Shown here one piece after another: positions 1,911 through 12,051 of a DNA stretch of 16,016 nucleotides. Where the stretch lies: positions 21,047 through 37,062 of the forward strand of contig PSLL01000012.1 in the NCBI GenBank assembly GCA_040289575.1. Reading direction: 5' to 3'. This DNA is from Candidatus Dadabacteria bacterium. Its GTDB lineage: Bacteria > Desulfobacterota_D > UBA1144 > Nemesobacterales > CSP1-2. The translations under genes and the position numbers were made by a program. Within the stretch, counting starts at the first letter, position 1; every line of letters starts with the position of its first letter. The notes under the pieces are model-generated. The model saw only the letters and a list, made by a program, of their open reading frames with translations, was not told the DNA's origin and ran no database searches.

Positions 1911-3329
1911 CTATTGCACCTTACCTTGATAAGGGCTTTGTTCGATGGAGCCACTCTGGGCGTTTTGTGTCGAAAATTCCTCCTCTGCTTCTTTTATCCT
2001 GGTTAGAATCTTGTCATTTATCCACTTCTCATCCCACCACTCGGTTGGAAGCACAGGAACCCCTTGTATGAGCACCGCATAGTGGAGGTGATCTCCCGCC
2101 GCAAGCCCCGTCTCACCGGTTCTTCCGATTATCTGTTTTTTCTTAACTGTATCTCCAACCCTTACCCCTATTGAACTCATGTGCGCATACAGGGTCGAAA
2201 TCCCGAAGCCGTGGTCTATTATGACTGCATTTCCGTATATTCCTAAATCATCCGCAAATACAATCACACCATCGTTTGCAGCCTCGATTGGTGATTTCTC
2301 AGTCACAGCCAGATCATAGCCCAGATGATACTGATGGTCTATTACCTCTCCCTTATAAACGTATGTTCTATAATCCGCAAAATTTGCCTCTACCTTTGAG
2401 TTTGTAAGTTGATGGAAAGCCCCGTTCCAAAGTATCGTGTTCTTTGAGTTTACGCAGATTTTTTTAATCTCAGCTTCGTTTTTCTGTCTTATGTCGCGAT
2501 TCACTTTAAGGAATATATCCTTTAAATCCCCGGTTTGAGAAGAATTTCCGCCTAGAATGGGAGCCGCTTTTCTCTCTATGAAATCATCACTTATATTAAG
2601 TGTACTCTCCCTGTATTTCTTATACTTTAATCTGTATGAGAACCCCACCTCCTTTGAGTTTCCGGCTTCGTCTTCTGCGACAACCACAGGTCTTGCATCA
2701 GGACTCACATTATAGGGGTATGCAAAGAACGCAAGATATATGTTGGGGTCCTTAAAGTAACCCTTGTATCCCGGAAAGAAGTAGTCCCCAACCTTAACCC
2801 CGCTCTTTACTGTATCCGACGAGGCCTTATAAATCACAAGCCCCGAGCCACCAAAATTGATATAGTACTCCCGACCCGCCACCTCAAGCCTTGGGGGTGT
2901 AACATCTATTGTAACGTTTTTGATCACGGTCGTTTTATTGCCCCGAAAGAACCTCCACAATGACCTATCTATAGCCGTAATACTAATCGTTGCAGGTCCC
3001 TCTTTTATACCGACTTTTTTTGGATCGAGGGCAATTGTAATATTCTTTTCCTTTACAGGCATAGAATAATCTTCTTCAATAAACGGATACTCAGTTCCTC
3101 CTTCATTAATCACAACGGAAACCCTTTTCAGCCCGCTTCCTTTGTCTTTTACCTCTACACTAAATGGACGAAGCCCTATGAAGTTGGAGTCTAGTTTTAG
3201 ATTTACAGTCGGCGGATACCACTCAAACCGGGGAATGAAAAATACGACACCTCCAATTATGACAGCAAAGAGCACCAGATAGAAGAATGTTTTTATTATG
3301 CCGCCTATTCTACTTTTATCTCTTCTCAT
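1911..3329 (-). CDS. Membrane-anchored M23 family zinc metallopeptidase (putative peptidoglycan endopeptidase)
   Basis: Basic N-terminus plus one hydrophobic helix; HxxxD (HLGYD), YGNAVIIDHG, TLYAH and HxH (GDHLH). GGAAGGGG SD-like sequence upstream. Confidence 0.93.
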   Translation of the reverse strand: MRRDKSRIGGIIKTFFYLVLFAVIIGGVVFFIPRFEWYPPTVNLKLDSNFIGLRPFSVEVKDKGSGLKRVSVVINEGGTEYPFIEEDYSMPVKEKNITIALDPKKVGIKEGPATISITAIDRSLWRFFRGNKTTVIKNVTIDVTPPRLEVAGREYYINFGGSGLVIYKASSDTVKSGVKVGDYFFPGYKGYFKDPNIYLAFFAYPYNVSPDARPVVVAEDEAGNSKEVGFSYRLKYKKYRESTLNISDDFIERKAAPILGGNSSQTGDLKDIFLKVNRDIRQKNEAEIKKICVNSKNTILWNGAFHQLTNSKVEANFADYRTYVYKGEVIDHQYHLGYDLAVTEKSPIEAANDGVIVFADDLGIYGNAVIIDHGFGISTLYAHMSSIGVRVGDTVKKKQIIGRTGETGLAAGDHLHYAVLIQGVPVLPTEWWDEKWINDKILTRIKEAEEEFSTQNAQSGSIEQSPYQGKVQ

Positions 3330-5057: not shown

Positions 5058-5103
5058 GTTTAACACCTCCTTCTCTGAATTTTTTTACTATACACTCCCG
5101 TCA

Positions 5104-5277
5104 TTACTCGTCGTGAATAAGGGCGCGCACCTTCTCGACAAGCTCCTTCGGAATATCCTTCATACCGTGGTCCTTTTGACAGTGTTCAGCGGCCTTTTTC
5201 AAGACCTCTTCCTCAGTTTTACCACGGGCTACAAAATCGCAGTCCACACCCGCGTCTCTGCATGAAACTACCTTCAT
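5104..5277 (-). CDS. DUF1059-like small metal-binding protein (57 aa)
   Basis: MKVVSCRDAGVDCDFVARGKTEEEVL...EHCQKDHG gives C-x6-C...H-x4-H. AAGGAGGT SD lies upstream of ATG 5277. Confidence 0.88.
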   Translation of the reverse strand: MKVVSCRDAGVDCDFVARGKTEEEVLKKAAEHCQKDHGMKDIPKELVEKVRALIHDE

Positions 5278-5297
5278 CTTTCTCACCTCCTTTTTAT

Positions 5298-5480
5298 TTA
5301 TTCATCTTCCAGCATAGCCCTGATTTGTTCCCGAAGTTCAGGCGTATCAATATGACCATGGCTGGTTACCACATGGTATATAGCAAGCGGCAGAACTTCA
5401 CTCTCCTTGCCGCTAATTGTAACCGTACAGCTATTCTCACTGGGACGTTCCCTACAATCTAAAACCTTTCTCTTGTCCAT
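5298..5480 (-). CDS. DUF1059-like small metal-binding protein, second subfamily (60 aa)
   Basis: MDKRKVLDCRERPSENSCTVTISG...YHVVTSHGHIDTPELREQIR gives C-x8-C...H-x4-H. AAGGAGG SD upstream favours ATG 5480 over 5537. Confidence 0.82.
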   Translation of the reverse strand: MDKRKVLDCRERPSENSCTVTISGKESEVLPLAIYHVVTSHGHIDTPELREQIRAMLEDE

Positions 5481-5497
5481 GATATTTCCCTCCTTTT

Positions 5498-5557
5498 TTA
5501 AACCTCGAATCTGTACTTTAGCCATTTCTCTATCCATACCTTCGCCCTTTCAGCCAA
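5498..5557 (-). pseudogene. 3' remnant of a small gene paralogous to the ORF at 9930-10046
   Basis: Reads LAERAKVWIEKWLKYRFEV* versus ILERAKAFIEDRL*; 5519-5551 matches 9933-9965 at 26/33 nt. The stop lies just before the SD of the first DUF1059-like gene. Confidence 0.6.
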
Positions 5558-5873
5558 CTTCCTCTCCTGAATCACCCTAAGGAGCTTTCGTGAAGACCTA
5601 TATTACAGATTAAATGCAGTTCATATTCAGATGCCTTCTCTCCGTGAGATGAGGGAGGACATTCCAGTTCTTGCGAAGCATTTCTTAAATAGCTTTGGGA
5701 ATGAGATTGGAAAAGGCCTTATGAGCTTTTCTCCTGATGCGATGGGGTGTTTGGTGAGATACAGTTGGCCAGGGAATGTGAGGAGCGGAGGGAATAAACA
5801 AAAGGCCTCTCGGATTCTTGGACTTACGAGGCAGGGGCTGATAAAAAAGATAAAAAGGTATAAGCTATACTAA
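5558..5873 (+). pseudogene. Rearranged remnant of a sigma54 enhancer-binding protein
   Basis: From 5583 the + strand reads SFREDLYYRLNAVHIQMPSLREMREDIP...YSWPGNVR joined directly to a Fis-type HTH (SGGNKQKASRILGLTRQGLIKKIKRY). Walker A/B and the GAFTGA loop are absent. 5587-5558 on the - strand reads KLLRVIQERK. Confidence 0.9.
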
Positions 5874-5909
5874 ATTGATAGCGATAATCTCTAGAGGAGG
5901 CTTTTCAGG

Positions 5910-7121
5910 TTGATTGACTTTGAACTTACCCAAACTCAAAAAAACATAAAACAACTCCTCCACTGGTTTGCAGAAAAAAAGATGAGACCGATTTCTCTCC
6001 AGGTAGATAAGGAAGGAGATGTGCCAAGGGAATTTCTTATTGAAGTAATGAATCTGGGGATAAGCTCAGGCAATCCGCTTCTAGGAGAGATTGAGGCAGG
6101 AGAGGCTGTAAAAGATAAACAAGGAAAATCCCAGAAGGCAAGAATATCTGTAATTGCATCGGAAGAGCTTGCATGGGGAGACCCGGCGTTTGTCATCTCG
6201 TTTCCCGGCCCGGGTCTGGGTGCGCCGCCCGTAAAGATGATAGGGACTAAAGAGCAGAAAGAGAGATTCTTTAGGGTATTTAAAGACATATCGGAGCCCA
6301 GATGGGGAGCCTATGCGCTTACCGAGCCTGGAGCCGGTTCAGATGTCGCGGCGATAAAGACAACAGCCGTGCGGGATGGAAACCAATACATAATCAACGG
6401 AAGAAAGTGTTTTATCACAAACGGGGCAAGGGCATCATGGGTCGTGGTTTTTGCCACAGTTGACCCTAAATTGGGAAGAGAGGGGCATCGGGTATTTGTA
6501 GTTGAAAAAGGGACACCGGGATTCCTTCCCGGAAGGATTGAAGAGAAGATGGGACTTCGCGCATCGGAAACAGCGGAACTCGTATTTGAAGATTGTCGGG
6601 TGCCGATTGAAAACCTTCTCGGCGGCGAGGAATATTACAGCGAAAAGGCAAAAAAGGGATTTAAAACAGCAATGAAAACGTTTGATTCTACGCGTCCCCT
6701 TGTTGCAGCTATGGCAGTTGGAATAGCACGTGCGGCCTACGAATTGGTAAGAGACTGGACAAAAGAAAACCAACTCCTTTCGAGTCAACTCCCCAGATTT
6801 CGTGGTCTTAAGGATACACTCGATGAAATGGATGCAGAGATTAATGCCGCAAGGCTCCTTTGCTGGCGTGCCGCCTGGATGATTGACGAAGGGCTTCCGA
6901 ATTCAAAAGAGGCATCAATGGCAAAGGCCTACGCCGCAGAGGTAGTGGGAAAAGTCACATCAAAGGCAATTGAGATTATGGGAGTCCACGGATGCCTCAG
7001 AGAAAACCTCATTGAGAAACTCTACAGAGACCAGAAGGTCTTTGACATATTCGAGGGCACAGGGCAGATACAGAGAATTATAATCTCACGCCGAATCTTT
7101 GAGGCTATGGGAGTCGAATAA
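5910..7121 (+). CDS. Acyl-CoA dehydrogenase family protein
   Basis: YALTEPGAGSD, INGRKCFITNG, KMGLRASETAEL.FEDC, EASMAK and catalytic IFEGT. TTG start with GAGGAGG SD at 5894-5900. Confidence 0.95.
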   Translation: MIDFELTQTQKNIKQLLHWFAEKKMRPISLQVDKEGDVPREFLIEVMNLGISSGNPLLGEIEAGEAVKDKQGKSQKARISVIASEELAWGDPAFVISFPGPGLGAPPVKMIGTKEQKERFFRVFKDISEPRWGAYALTEPGAGSDVAAIKTTAVRDGNQYIINGRKCFITNGARASWVVVFATVDPKLGREGHRVFVVEKGTPGFLPGRIEEKMGLRASETAELVFEDCRVPIENLLGGEEYYSEKAKKGFKTAMKTFDSTRPLVAAMAVGIARAAYELVRDWTKENQLLSSQLPRFRGLKDTLDEMDAEINAARLLCWRAAWMIDEGLPNSKEASMAKAYAAEVVGKVTSKAIEIMGVHGCLRENLIEKLYRDQKVFDIFEGTGQIQRIIISRRIFEAMGVE

Positions 7122-7195: not shown

Positions 7196-9949
7196 ATGAA
7201 AGGCGAAATAAATATATTAGGAGCAAGAGAGAATAATTTAAAGAATATAAACATCTCTATTCCCTGGCACAAGTACACTGTCATTACGGGCCTCAGCGGA
7301 TCTGGAAAATCGTCTCTTGCCCTTGATACCCTCTATGCCGAGGGGATGAGAAGGTATGTCGAGTGCCTTTCAACATATGCAAGACAATTCTTTGAACGCG
7401 TTGACCGTCCGGATATGGACGACATCACGGGACTTCCTCCCGTGATTGCAATTGAGAGCAGAAATCAGGTAAAAAATTCGCGCTCTACTGTAGGGACAAC
7501 CACTGAAATATACGACTATCTGAGGCTTCTCTTCGCAAAGATTGGGAGGATATTCTGTCCAAATTGCCAAATAGAGATAAAACGCCATTCGCCTCAGAGT
7601 ATATCAGAAGACCTGATTAAAAATAATAGGGATAAAAAAGCGCTCATAACGTTTCCCATTGGAGAAAATGGTATCTCCCCCCAAGAGTTAATGTCCAAGG
7701 GATTTATCAGGATAATCTATCAAGGAGAAGTGATTGAAGTTGAAGAACTCTCAATGATACCAGAGGGCTCTGAAGCCGTAGTGGATAGAATAGTTATTAA
7801 TAAAAACTCTTCGTCAAGGATTACAGATTCAATTGAAACGGCTTTTTCTGAGAGCAATTATATCAATGTCCATTTTGTTGACAGGAGTGTTCTGAAATAT
7901 TCAAGGGATCTCGAATGTCCGTACTGCCAAAGAAGATTCAATAAGCCAACCCCACTTCTATTTTCTTTTAATAGTCCGCAAGGAGCGTGTCCAGCCTGTC
8001 GCGGGTTTGGAAACATACTCGATATTGACCCGGACCTAGTAGTACCGAATCCCGAAAAGGGCCTAGCGCAGGGAGCGATTGAGCCTCTTACAAAGCCCTC
8101 TCTCAAAGATGAAATGAAAGAGCTGCTCCAATTTGCACGCAGAAAGGGAATAGACATAAACACGCCATTTAAAAGCCTCCCTGAAGATGCAAAAAAGTCT
8201 ATATTTGAGGGTGAGGGAAGATTTCCGGGCGTAAAGGGGTATTTCAGGTATTTGGAAGAGAAGAGCTATAAGCTTCACGTCAGGATTTTTCTCAGCAAAT
8301 ACAGATCGGCTTTTACATGTGGAAGTTGCAATGGGACTAGGCTAAGACCAGAAGCGCTCTGGGTGAAAGTAGAAGGCAAGAAAATCTCCGATATTGCCGA
8401 TATGCCGATAGAAGAATCGAGTATTTTTTTTCAGGGCTTAACTCTCAGTGACTATGAAGAGAAGATCGCAGGAGAGGTTCTAAAACAGATTAGATCAAGG
8501 ATTGATTTTCTACAGAAGGTGGGCCTTGGATACATTACACTCTCTCGGCTTACAAAGACACTTTCGGGCGGCGAAGCACAGAGGGTTGATCTCGCATGTC
8601 AGCTCGGGGCAAGCCTCTCTGAGGTTCTCTACATAATGGATGAGCCGTCAATCGGGCTTCATCCCAGGGATATTGACAAGCTGATTTCGATTATAAGGGA
8701 GTTAAGAGATAGAAACAACACAGTCGTAGTCGTTGAGCACGACTTTGATATGATACGTTCTGCCGACTACATAATCGAACTCGGTCCCCTTGCCGGAGAA
8801 AGAGGGGGAGAAGTTGTATATCAAGGCCCCACCGAGAAGTTTCTAAATAATTCTCATCAATCCATTACGAGACTCTATCTCACACAAAAAGAGAGAATTC
8901 CCATTCCTATAAAAAGGAGAAGGGAAAAAGAGAAAAACCTGACTGTTATTGGCACATCAGAGAACAACCTTAAAAACATCACAGTCTCATTTCCACTTGG
9001 GACCTTTGTATGCGTGACCGGGGTTTCTGGCTCCGGAAAAAGCTCTCTCGTCCATGACGTGGTCTACTCAAGCTTAGCCCGAATCTTCCACAGCGAATTA
9101 GAAAAGGTCGACAAATGCAGAGAAATCTCAGGCACATCCTATATTTCAGATGTCGTGATGCTTGACCAGACGCCGATAGGAAAAAGCTCAAGGTCAAATC
9201 CTGTGACATATATCAAGGCTTATGATGAAATCAGAAGGGTTATGTCAGATACATGGGAGGCACGTGCAAGGGGGTTTTCTGCCTCGCACTTCTCATTCAA
9301 TGTTCCAGGAGGCAGATGTGAGACCTGTCAGGGAGAAGGCAGACAAAAGATTGAGATGCATTTCCTTGCAGATATCTTCGTAACCTGTGAAGAGTGTCAT
9401 GGAAGGAGGTTTAAAAAGGAAGTGCTTGATGTCAGATACAAAGGGAAAAACGTCGCTGAGATACTCAATCTTACGATTGATGAGGGAATATGGTTTTTCT
9501 CAGACGTCCTGACACTTATCAGGAAATTAAAAATACTCCAAGATGTAGGGCTTGGATATTTAAGGCTTGGTCAGCCCGCCCCTACCCTTTCAGGTGGAGA
9601 GGCGCAGAGGATAAAAATCGCAAGAGAACTCGGAAGAAAGGATGGAAAAAACATCCTCTACATACTTGATGAACCCACTGTGGGACTCCACATAGAGGAC
9701 ATAAAAAAGCTCTTGAGGGTTCTAAATAGGCTAGTTGATGCAGGAAATACTGTGATTGTAGTTGAGCACAACCTCGATGTCATAAAATCCGCCGATTATA
9801 TAATAGACCTAGGTCCAGAGGGCGGCGAGAGAGGCGGATATATTATAGCCCAAGGTACACCGGAAGAGGTTGCCAAAATCAAAGAATCATATACAGGAAT
9901 ATATCTAAACAATGTCTTGCAACGACAAACTATAGCCGATCCTCTATAA
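7196..9949 (+). CDS. uvrA: Excinuclease ABC subunit A (probably a second-copy type)
   Basis: Two ABC ATPase domains (GLSGSGKS, GVSGSGKS; LSGGEAQR x2; DEPSIGLH, DEPTVGLH), CxxC zinc pairs, FSFN motifs and GARENNLKNI start. Confidence 0.96.
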   Translation: MKGEINILGARENNLKNINISIPWHKYTVITGLSGSGKSSLALDTLYAEGMRRYVECLSTYARQFFERVDRPDMDDITGLPPVIAIESRNQVKNSRSTVGTTTEIYDYLRLLFAKIGRIFCPNCQIEIKRHSPQSISEDLIKNNRDKKALITFPIGENGISPQELMSKGFIRIIYQGEVIEVEELSMIPEGSEAVVDRIVINKNSSSRITDSIETAFSESNYINVHFVDRSVLKYSRDLECPYCQRRFNKPTPLLFSFNSPQGACPACRGFGNILDIDPDLVVPNPEKGLAQGAIEPLTKPSLKDEMKELLQFARRKGIDINTPFKSLPEDAKKSIFEGEGRFPGVKGYFRYLEEKSYKLHVRIFLSKYRSAFTCGSCNGTRLRPEALWVKVEGKKISDIADMPIEESSIFFQGLTLSDYEEKIAGEVLKQIRSRIDFLQKVGLGYITLSRLTKTLSGGEAQRVDLACQLGASLSEVLYIMDEPSIGLHPRDIDKLISIIRELRDRNNTVVVVEHDFDMIRSADYIIELGPLAGERGGEVVYQGPTEKFLNNSHQSITRLYLTQKERIPIPIKRRREKEKNLTVIGTSENNLKNITVSFPLGTFVCVTGVSGSGKSSLVHDVVYSSLARIFHSELEKVDKCREISGTSYISDVVMLDQTPIGKSSRSNPVTYIKAYDEIRRVMSDTWEARARGFSASHFSFNVPGGRCETCQGEGRQKIEMHFLADIFVTCEECHGRRFKKEVLDVRYKGKNVAEILNLTIDEGIWFFSDVLTLIRKLKILQDVGLGYLRLGQPAPTLSGGEAQRIKIARELGRKDGKNILYILDEPTVGLHIEDIKKLLRVLNRLVDAGNTVIVVEHNLDVIKSADYIIDLGPEGGERGGYIIAQGTPEEVAKIKESYTGIYLNNVLQRQTIADPL

Positions 9950-10046
9950 ATGCCTTAGCCCTTTCTAGAATTCTATCATCAGGCAGGGTTGGATCAAGAA
10001 AGTATTCGTCAGATAAAACCCCAACCGCTATATCTCTAATCGCCAT
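9930..10046 (-). CDS. Small hypothetical protein (38 aa), MAIRDIAVGVLSDEYFLDPTLPDDRILERAKAFIEDRL
   Basis: ATG 10046 with GAGGG SD 7 nt upstream and a sigma54 promoter about 45 nt upstream. A paralogous fragment lies at 5498-5557. It overlaps the uvrA 3' end by 20 nt and is not in the supplied ORF track. Confidence 0.65.
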   Translation of the reverse strand: MAIRDIAVGVLSDEYFLDPTLPDDRILERAKAFIEDRL

Positions 10047-10088
10047 TGATAAGCCCTCACTTTAAATGGGTTTTATAATGGGCTACGA

Positions 10089-10106
10089 TTGCAAGTGCCG
10101 TGCCTA
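10089..10106 (-). promoter_or_regulatory. Sigma54 (-24/-12) promoter
   Basis: - strand TAGGCACGGCACTTGCAA has GG-N10-GC and is near the TGGCACG-N4-TTGCA consensus. It is divergent from a bEBP gene. Confidence 0.85.
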
Positions 10107-10224
10107 ACGTGAGCAAGAGACAACAATTAAAGGAAATCATAAAAAACCACAGAAAGATTCGATAATTAGGTTATTTTTATCCTCGGGTTTCTCAGTGTCA
10201 TGGAATAACCGGTTTTCCATAAGC

Positions 10225-10327
10225 GTCTACTTTGTTAACATACCAAATTCGGCTGGATGGCTTAAATTGATATATCGTGCTCATTGCAGCTGTAAACTCT
10301 GTTATTACTGTGTCAACAAAAGAGACA
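10225..10327. promoter_or_regulatory. Candidate upstream activator sequences (GTCAAC-N3-GTTGAC-like boxes)
   Basis: GTCTACTTTGTTAAC (10225-10239), GTAAACTCTGTTATT (10292-10306) and GTCAACAAAAGAGAC (10312-10326), about 120-220 bp upstream of the sigma54 promoter. Confidence 0.45.
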
Positions 10328-10414
10328 TCAGATGATTCCTCGATTAAAACAGAGAAAATCAAGATCGCTAAACTCAGATTCAGACAGCCAACGGGCCGCA
10401 TTAGCCAAATTCTG

Positions 10415-10444
10415 TTGACGTCAATTTGTCCCCCATGTTAAAAT
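10415..10444 (+). promoter_or_regulatory. Putative sigma70 promoter of the bEBP gene
   Basis: TTGACG-N18-TAAAAT with a TGn extended -10, about 30 nt before the start codon. Confidence 0.55.
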
Positions 10445-10470
10445 AGCCAAAACCCTCAGATGAAGGGTGG

Positions 10471-12011
10471 GTGATGCACTCTATTAAAAAACACATTCCG
10501 CACCAATCGAGCCAGATTCAAGAAAAACTCCCCGCAATACTAGAAATCTGTCAGAAGATGAGCGCAGAAAAGGAACTGGCGGCTCTTCTGAACCTAATAG
10601 CTAAAGAAGCCGCGAGGCTCATGGAGGCAGATCGGGCAAGCATCTTCCTTCTGGATCGAGATAAAAACGAGTTATGGTCAATAATAACACTTGACGGCAC
10701 GCAGATACGCTTTGATGCGCGCCTTGGGATTGCCGGGGCCGCTGCCCTGACCGGGCAGATAATAAACGTGAAAGACGCATACAAAGACCCGCGTTTCTAT
10801 AAGGGGATTGATGGACGCACAGGATACCGCACAAGGAGCCTGCTTGTCGTACCACTCAGGAATCAAGAAGGAAATGTCATTGGGACGTTTCAGGTACTAA
10901 ATAAAAAGAACGGGGTTTTCAATAAATACGATGAGGGAATATTAGAACTGTTGGGCAGCCAGGTATCAACCGCCATTGAAACAGTGCAATTGGTCGAAGA
11001 GTTAAACTGGCATCGCAATGAGCTTCTCCAGGAGAACACACAGCTATTGATGAAGGTCGAAAGGAGGTTCTCAACACAAAACATCCTTGGGACAAGTCCC
11101 CAAATTCAAAATACAGTGAGGTTGATTGAGCAGATCAGCGATAGCTCCGTCAATGTCCTGATTATGGGAGAGAGCGGAACGAGAAAGGAACTCGTTGCTA
11201 AAACGATTCACTATAACAGCCACGCGTCCGCCATCCCTTCGTCGCATTAAATTGCGCGGCTCTCCCCGAAAGCCTAGTAGAAAGTGAACTATTCGGGATT
11301 GAAAAAGGAGTAGCCACAGGCGTAGAGCGAAGGATTGGTAAGTTTGAGATGGCAAATGGCGGAACTCTATTTTTAGATGAGATTGGAGACCTGAGCCTCC
11401 CCGCACAAGCCAAAGTACTTCGCGTGCTCCAAGAAGGGGTGATAGAACGTGTGGGGGGAAGAAAAGAGATTCCCGTGGATATAAGGGTTCTCGCGGCAAC
11501 CAATAAGGATTTAGAGGCGGAGATAAAAAAAGGAAACTTCCGTAAAGACCTTTACTATCGCCTAAAGATAATCCACATTCAGATGCCTGCGCTAAGAGAA
11601 ATCCCGGAGGACATCCCACTCCTGGCGAATTATTTTCTGAGTAATTACTGCCGGGAGATGGGCAAAGAGCCTAAGAAACTAACTCCGGGAGCGCTCAGGT
11701 ATCTCATGAGCTATTCTTGGCCGGGAAATGTTAGGGAGCTGGAGAACAATATCAAGCGGCTTGTAGTTTTGACCCCGCGAAGGGTGATAACCGAAGCGGA
11801 TCTTCCGGAGGATATTCGCAGTGTCGGCGAGAGGACACCAATGTTAAGGACGCACTCATTTAAAGAGACAGTAGAGGAACTAGAGAAGCGCCTTATCTCA
11901 GAAGCCCTTCAAATGTGTCATCAAAACCAGCTACAGGCAGCAAAGGCTTTGGGACTCAGCCGCCAAGGGTTAATCAAGAAAATGAAGAGGTATGGCATTA
12001 GGACACCCTAA
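10471..12011 (+). pseudogene. GAF-AAA+-HTH sigma54 enhancer-binding protein, frameshifted
   Basis: GAF domain (ADRASIFLLD...DAYKDPRF...TRSLLVVPL). Adding one base at about 11221 restores [30 protein letters not shown] and joins the two ORFs. Walker A reads GESGTRKE; Walker [17 protein letters not shown] and the C-terminal HTH are present. Confidence 0.92.
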
Positions 12012-12051
12012 GTATTTCCCAAATCCGATTCTTAAAATCAGAGAGGTTTTC

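Follow-up and report, generated by a model that had tools for sequence, protein, structure and literature searches.

The locus and its features

The DNA analysed here, referred to below as the window, is a stretch of 16,016 nucleotides (nt) from a Candidatus Dadabacteria bacterium (GenBank assembly GCA_040289575.1, contig PSLL01000012.1, positions 21,047 to 37,062), and the element in question is an open reading frame (ORF) of 38 amino acids (aa) on its minus strand, which is placed between uvrA and the divergent gene of a bacterial enhancer-binding protein (bEBP) and is preceded by a sigma54 promoter element. The features of this locus, with positions counted from the first letter of the window, are as follows.

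9930-10046, minus strand: 38-aa ORF, a deletion allele of an 84-aa gene, with codons 1-6 and 53-84 kept
10026-10031, minus strand: deletion scar, with the junction between 10029 and 10028, +/-1 nt
10058-10054, minus strand: GAGGG ribosome-binding site, 8 nt 5' of the ATG
10106-10089, minus strand: sigma54 -24/-12 element, the 18-mer TAGGCACGGCACTTGCAA, with the core GGCAC-N5-TTGC at 10091-10104
10107-10470, no strand: non-coding spacer of 364 nt between the sigma54 promoter and the bEBP start
10415-10444, plus strand: sigma70-like promoter of the bEBP gene (TTGACG, 18 nt, TAAAAT; 10/12)
10471-12011, plus strand: GAF-AAA+-HTH (helix-turn-helix) bEBP pseudogene, split into ORFs of 259 aa and 220 aa
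7196-9949, plus strand: uvrA, convergent with the 38-aa ORF, with a 3' overlap of 20 nt

The ORF, which is translated as MAIRDIAVGVLSDEYFLDPTLPDDRILERAKAFIEDRL, its GAGGG Shine-Dalgarno sequence and the near-consensus sigma54 promoter had been proposed in an initial annotation made from the sequence alone, and all three are present as described, the promoter by virtue of its core. Pfam and NCBIfam searches of the 38-aa ORF gave zero matches, and no family was matched in an Rfam scan of the window.

Origin of the 38-aa ORF

When 41 genomes (G000 and 40 relatives) were searched in six frames with the 38-aa query, the sole real match beyond the window was found in the congener G002, with 77% identity over residues 4-38, and it lies inside an open frame of 85 codons. 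The gene order in G002 is that of the window (uvrA, an 84-aa ORF, the sigma54 promoter and the divergent bEBP), and the two DNA sequences align collinearly from the bEBP start to uvrA, interrupted by short indels in the spacer and by one clean gap of 138 nt in the ORF. What the window lacks relative to G002 is exactly codons 7-52, removed in frame. A metagenome contig, L033, provides the third syntenic locus, with an 84-aa ORF, a matching promoter core and a bEBP of 512 aa, against which the window shows the same deletion pattern. In protein databases, nine homologs of 84-97 aa with 64-98% identity were recovered, all of them with the segment that is absent from the window. The profile A2 matches the ORF at profile positions 49-84 (expectation value, E, 1.6e-11), that is, at the C-terminal helix LPDD..LERAKAFIE..L; the ORF thus has the C-terminal helix motif of the family, together with the synteny with uvrA and the bEBP, and lacks the core barrel motif described below.

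The 38-aa ORF is a truncated allele of a gene whose ancestor had 84-97 codons and stood alone between the sigma54 promoter and the convergent uvrA. Of the small-protein family suggested by the initial annotation, a conserved small gene under a sigma54 promoter and back-to-back with a bEBP does exist, at three syntenic loci, but its products are of 84-97 aa rather than 38. The ORF as a mini-protein family of its own fails: that it might prove a deleted stub of a longer known protein had been named beforehand as grounds for rejection, and a deleted stub of a longer protein is what was found, although the parent, unlike the known protein then envisaged, is itself uncharacterised. In six frames, the 38-aa query also matched ZapA genes weakly (E 0.2-1.2); ZapA was rejected as an identity by means of the Pfam model PF05164, which matches the ZapA of the genome itself but, at a cutoff as loose as E <= 10, still misses both the 84-aa and the 38-aa protein.

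The lesions of the window are not assembly errors of one metagenome bin, because the same sequence is reproduced by contigs of four sequencing runs from two studies, which agree with 9800-11400 at every base but one and without gaps. The runs X1 and X2 are possibly the source of the DNA of the window itself, X3 covers 9840-11400, and its contigs span both the deletion and the frameshift of the bEBP, while X4 covers 9800-10305 and 10491-11041, and its contigs span the deletion. The lesions of the bEBP are reproduced in contigs of runs X1-X3. The one substitution lies at 11053, where the window has A and the contigs of runs X1-X3 have G, the only difference in 1601 bases.

The deleted segment and the wider family

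Between G002 and L033, the ORF as a whole has a ratio of non-synonymous to synonymous divergence (dN/dS) of 0.22, which breaks down into 0.10 in codons 1-52 and 0.48 in codons 53-84. The deletion therefore struck the best-conserved and most constrained part of the protein, which according to the structural model includes the whole predicted barrel. AlphaFold2, supplied with 42 sequences, modelled the 84-aa protein with a mean predicted local distance difference test score (pLDDT) of 81.6 and a predicted template modelling score (pTM) of 0.65 (an earlier run with 10 sequences, at pLDDT 49.5, was unusable). The predicted model consists of a helix at 3-17, four strands within 26-56, a short helix at 59-64 and a helix at 70-83, and since only residues 1-6 and 53-84 remain in the stub, the whole predicted barrel is gone from it.

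A Foldseek search with this model returned no row at E <= 0.001 (all at E >= 0.2). Nearly all of the top rows of the fold searches (Foldseek and VIA) are Tudor/PWWP/SH3-like, including Tudor-SN, TDRD1, the Pdp1 PWWP domain, the PSHCP Tudor domain (6nnb) and the Lon specificity factor 5ycq. The best VIA result has a Z of 4.5, where the tool warns that values below 8 can reflect a common arrangement, and residues 19-66 of the model superpose on Tudor domains with a root-mean-square deviation of 1.7-2.3 A over 47-51 residues. The ESM Atlas gave no usable hit by features, and its structure rows, which derive from a model of pTM 0.25, were ignored. The resemblance of the 84-aa model to Tudor and SH3 barrels is weak and unaccompanied by a sequence-family match, and the stub in the window lacks this domain altogether; a Tudor/PWWP/SH3-like fold is a weak lead and not a classification.

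A profile search over 1.84 billion representatives yielded 21 hits at E <= 0.001, one of them the representative of the subfamily itself and 18 of them new small proteins of 70-141 aa, which share the core FGDxCRAKCxAPARYxGxGKCLxVSxxxNDLxVDDA followed by LPLPxDxxL. The other two, P0011 and P0024, are long Thr/Ser-rich repeat proteins that by eye are compositional matches, and they were excluded from the alignments. Further members, all unnamed, were added by a second profile search. The ORF in the window lacks the core motif (FGDxCRAK..APARY..G.GK..N.L..DDA), which corresponds to the predicted barrel and to the deleted codons 7-52, and the wide-family profile A7 does not detect the stub in G000 at E <= 0.1. 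Pfam, NCBIfam and PHROG searches gave no match for the 84-aa family, and the wider members are likewise without a Pfam or PHROG family; the initial annotation was right in not recognising the family. Among 120 genomes of the phylum, G002 alone has an intact member, and the 84-97-aa family, itself rare, belongs to a wider, rarer group.

Two further occurrences were noted. In G002, contig C390 (L026) has at 1501-1566 a short frame, MTEKDIDDRLWDYYFASLDQL-stop, which resembles the N-terminal helix of the family (E 0.006); the similarity ends at the stop, which suggests a second copy in decay. An 89-aa member of the wider FGDxCRAK family is present at 2998-3267 of the IMG/VR contig L037. Seven neighbouring ORFs were scanned there, of which five have a Pfam match (Dam methylase, PD-(D/E)XK nuclease, DUF1376/DnaT, methyltransferase and DUF6362) and two have none; there is no bEBP among these seven, and no GGCA-N6-TTGC match on L037. 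The wider family may thus travel on phage-like elements, and the sigma54 link is shown solely for the subfamily of this genus.

The sigma54 promoter and the spacer

The sigma54 consensus used here is TGGCAC-N5-TTGCW, with GG at -24 and GC at -12, 10 nt apart. The exact core GGCAC-N5-TTGC has a single occurrence in the window, the one ahead of the ORF, where it continues as TTGCA; the base before the GG is A in the window and G in G002 and L033, and T in the consensus. With up to one mismatch, the core has four matches in the window against 2.10 expected, and because 32 of 200 shuffles attain four, the motif count by itself is unexceptional. What makes the promoter credible is that an identical core occupies the equivalent place in two orthologous loci: it is kept in both of the other loci that hold the gene (G002 and L033) and is missing along with the gene in another congener, G001. 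The ribosome-binding site at the equivalent spot is GAGGA in G002 and GAGGG in L033. By the textbook -12 rule, counting 12 nt from the C of TTGC (10091), the transcript would start near 10079 and have a leader of 33 nt. A look-up of RNA runs with the stretch 9800-11400 listed none. The genome has an rpoN gene, a 515-aa open frame on contig C40 that matches PF04552 (E 1.7e-56).

In three loci (the window and its counterparts L015 and L033), the spacer, of about 360 nt, has kept 76-83% identity despite a synonymous divergence (dS) of 0.26-0.77 in the flanking bEBPs, and it is non-coding, since some of its indels are not multiples of three. Such conservation suggests that it probably holds binding sites of the activator. 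No inverted repeat was found in 10040-10480 (seed 6, distance <= 40), so no activator site can be named. The sigma70-like promoter of the bEBP gene is mostly retained in G001 and G002, the G001 version being TTGACGCC.

The neighbouring bEBP

The two halves of the bEBP in the window together carry the GAF, Sigma54_activat, AAA_lid_14 and HTH_8 domains, with profile positions 50-91 out of frame, and they are 92% identical to the intact bEBP of G002, which has 514 aa. One base is absent between 11219 and 11220, between Walker A and Walker B, which causes the frameshift, and Walker A itself reads GESGTRKE instead of GESGTGKE, the second Gly being replaced by an Arg codon at 11182-11184 (GGC->AGA). 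The initial annotation placed both the ORF at 9930 and its recurring motif at 5519 beside a divergent bEBP, and the layout is true at both sites, but neither bEBP is intact; at the 9930 site the frameshift and GESGTRKE leave the window without an active adjacent bEBP. These lesions are recent, because dN/dS along the window branch is about 0.08. By bEBP distance, the window stands outside the pair formed by G002 and L033 (dS 0.70-0.77 from the pair, compared with 0.26 between the two). When the 84-aa protein was modelled in complex with the G002 bEBP, the score was 0.00 (mark 0.32), which counts neither way.

Separate loss in a congener

In G001, contig C32 is collinear with the window, but 213 nt separate the uvrA stop from the bEBP start, and there is no counterpart of window 9930-10397; neither a small ORF nor a -24/-12 match is present in this spacer. 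In the G001 bEBP, Walker A is intact and the sequence is ungapped where the window has its frameshift. It has a different 1-nt gap, in Walker B (TLFLDEIGD -> TLFLMR-stop), which leaves ORFs of 304 aa and 195 aa, as judged from the assembly, not from reads. Given that the bEBPs of the window and G001 differ by a dS of 0.59 with a dN/dS of 0.10, the two genes were inactivated separately and recently. Target and activator are damaged jointly in two lineages (the window and G001) and intact jointly in two (G002 and L033). The joint decay in two congeners, by different lesions, fits the pairing of the bEBP with the small gene as regulator and output that the initial annotation had put forward, and this linked damage and retention is the best evidence here for a dedicated bEBP-target pair.

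A probable decaying regulator-target module and its alternatives

The locus is very probably a young, decaying regulator-target module in which the 38-aa ORF is an in-frame deletion stub and not a new mini-protein family. In the intact relatives, the layout and the conservation suggest that the conserved spacer of about 360 nt is most likely bound by the divergent GAF-AAA+-HTH bEBP, which would activate sigma54 RNA polymerase at GGCAC-N5-TTGC and so give rise to a one-gene mRNA with a leader of about 33 nt that encodes the small protein, with its predicted N-terminal helix, four-stranded SH3/Tudor-like barrel and C-terminal helix. In the window, the 138-nt in-frame deletion took codons 7-52 and with them the whole predicted barrel, and the bEBP carries the frameshift and the Gly->Arg change in Walker A. 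Because sigma54 promoters require an active bEBP and the local one is broken, the promoter in the window is probably silent; any product of the stub would be a linker plus one helix only.

Several points weigh against this account. All of the DNA contexts come from one genus-level lineage, so that the link between the bEBP and the promoter, to which layout, conservation and linked loss point, is deduced rather than demonstrated. The frameshift of G001 rests on an assembly, not on reads, and the decay as such rests on three lesions and not on accumulated drift (dN/dS about 0.08, and 0.10 against G001). The deletion is in frame, and the start, the ribosome-binding site, the stop and the promoter core are intact, so that a short product could still be wanted; by chance, one deletion in three is in frame. 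The retained 38 codons have a dN/dS of 0.25-0.30 against G002 and L033, from just 7-11 non-synonymous differences, though this mostly reflects the time before the deletion. In principle, another bEBP could activate the promoter.

The last three of these points are also what would favour a still-working micro-protein, whose C-terminal linker plus helix acts alone under cross-activation by another bEBP; the genome has rpoN and 14 matches to a bEBP fragment query. If true, the stub would be a natural micro-protein born by internal deletion of a sigma54-controlled gene. This reading is improbable, since the deletion took the most constrained part of the protein along with the entire predicted barrel, two lesions inactivate the cognate activator and the congener G001 has dispensed with the gene entirely; moreover, no other short form occurs among the nine close homologs or the 30 near-length profile hits, shorter lengths not having been searched separately. 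It is more improbable still that the ORF is incidental and that the promoter really serves to make an RNA, such as an antisense RNA against the 3' end of uvrA. The ORF does stop 8 nt short of uvrA in G002, in the window the two overlap by 20 nt, and no terminator-like site was found downstream of the ORF; yet the intact ORF is under coding-type constraint (dN/dS 0.22 overall and 0.10 in codons 1-52), the length differences among the 10 homologs are whole inserted residues in the variable linker, distant relatives exist at the protein level, and the Rfam scan of the window was empty.

That the short form is ancestral and that G002 and L033 gained 46 codons can hardly be credited, despite the position of the window outside the G002-L033 pair, because these codons hold FGDxCRAK..APARY..G.GK, which is common to distant relatives of 70-141 aa from other sources, and because more diverged members of the subfamily (64-78% identity) carry them too. 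Assembly error as the origin of both the deletion and the frameshift has just as slight a chance: the genome is a bin of 126 contigs, as that explanation would have it, but the independent contigs of the four runs from the two studies give the same sequence free of gaps, even if two of the runs are possibly the bin's own source.

A decaying module is comparable in layout with known pairs of a divergent bEBP and its sigma54 target, norR-norVW (with a GAF-type bEBP) and pspF-pspA. As in those systems, the bEBP is back-to-back with a -24/-12 promoter that drives a local target, and the activator has the domain order GAF, AAA+ and HTH_8 found in pairs of the norR-norVW type. Unlike them, the target is a single small uncharacterised gene, both partners are damaged in the window, and the activation is predicted. 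A full-text literature search on sigma54 or bEBPs with a small Tudor-like protein listed nothing relevant, to judge by titles and the beginnings of abstracts. The genus provides a natural loss series, in which G002 is intact, the window has a truncated target and a broken activator, and G001 has lost the target and has an activator broken differently; without any experiment, this series connects one small gene with a GAF-type activator. The intact 84-aa protein, possibly Tudor-like, may be the sole dedicated output of the GAF-sensor bEBP, in a closed two-gene circuit that the genus is repeatedly losing. For the search for small ORFs, the locus carries a caution: even an open frame with a good ribosome-binding site and a near-consensus sigma54 promoter can be all that is left of a longer gene.

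The match at 5519-5551 and a second sigma54 module

The initial annotation had also pointed to a match of 26/33 nt between the ORF and 5519-5551 on the same strand. The match is real and unusual: 5519-5551 and 9933-9965 (both minus strand) agree in frame as ERAKVWIEKWL and ERAKAFIEDRL, when the ORF was shuffled by dinucleotides, 1 of 300 shuffles reached this score in the window, and nowhere in the 3.06-Mb genome does the ORF have a better non-self match (score 20, followed by 18, 17 and ten at 16). It is not, however, the paralogous fragment that it was taken for, being the C-terminal end of a member of an unrelated family of about 72 aa. Profile comparisons of the two families by hhalign gave homology probabilities of 0.06% and 1%, and a blastn comparison of 5281-5920 with 9900-12030 gave only generic bEBP similarity (71%, 99 nt) and short chance words. 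The resemblance amounts to 11 codons of an amphipathic C-terminal helix, sharpened by a K->R and a T->A that are specific to the remnant in the window. The features at this second site are the following.

5498-5575, minus strand: 25-codon 3' remnant of a gene of the ~72-aa family, which contains the 5519-5551 match
5571-5873, plus strand: second bEBP remnant of 100 codons, part of the AAA+ lid and the HTH
5104-5286 and 5298-5537 (likely start 5478), minus strand: two DUF1059 genes, whose sigma54 operon promoter is lost here

The fragment at 5498-5575 aligns, as KLAERAKVWIEKWLKYR, with the near-invariant C-terminus of the family, ELAEKTKVWIEKWLKDRL, and the N-terminal part, MTITIAPFT..PITYWGIYLDDK, is absent from it. 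The DNA at 5091-5559 is 89% identical to that of G001, and the homology ends at 5559. Relative to G001, about 1.2 kb has been lost, by which the last 25 codons of the ~72-aa gene were joined to codon ~345 of the bEBP. The bEBP remnant, which is 59-65% identical to the nearest intact bEBPs, lacks about 345 N-terminal and about 65 internal residues. The site is thus the wreck of an unrelated sigma54 module, destroyed by a larger deletion.

In G001, the operon is intact. Its sigma54 promoter, TGGCATGGCTTTTGC, is followed by an 89-aa ORF whose start by eye resembles a signal peptide, then by a perfect hairpin, an ORF of 70 aa, a pair of DUF1059 genes and DUF1326, and a bEBP lies divergent to the operon. 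A like layout is found in G005, a member of another genus, with the promoter GGCACATCTGTTGC and a GAF-type bEBP, and in both genomes the DUF1059 genes are downstream in this second sigma54 operon. The 70-aa protein of G001 has 132 database relatives at E <= 0.01, mostly of about 72 aa and all unnamed or labelled 'hypothetical protein', and it has no Pfam match; 37 of the 132 hits were used in alignment A10. In contrast to the 84-aa gene, the ~72-aa gene belongs to a longer operon, in which it stands between the gene of the signal-peptide protein and the DUF1059 genes. As it comes second after the sigma54 promoter in G001 and G005, the proposal that a small protein of this kind is the first output of the bEBP does not hold at this locus. 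The association of a bEBP with a -24/-12 element extends over one genus for the 84-aa family and over two genera for the ~72-aa family, and two unannotated small-protein families, one of 84-97 aa (possibly Tudor-like) and one of about 72 aa (at least 132 members), point to sigma54 control.

Neighbouring genes and minor observations

At the uvrA end (window 9920-9949), the protein terminates as ...NNVLQRQTIADPL-stop in the window and as ...SKVL-stop in G002 and G001. Because the usual stop codon is altered in the window, uvrA gains nine residues and the 20-nt overlap with the stub.

The conserved sigma54 operon of the second module lies at 1764-2355 of L039 (G001:C32) and at 1503-2580 of L042 (G005:C15), in the order of a small ORF that by eye is signal-peptide-like, the ~72-aa gene and the DUF1059 gene or genes, with the bEBP divergent. 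The gene of the ~72-aa family in G005 is cut short at 51 aa. For the G001 bEBP, at L039 2528-3322, the longest ORF starts about 20 residues before the AAA+ domain and is without GAF, whereas that of G005 has it. Between the 89-aa and 70-aa ORFs, at L039 1998-2021 (minus strand), there is a perfect palindrome of 24 nt, with two arms of 12 nt and no spacer, which could be an attenuator or a processing site.

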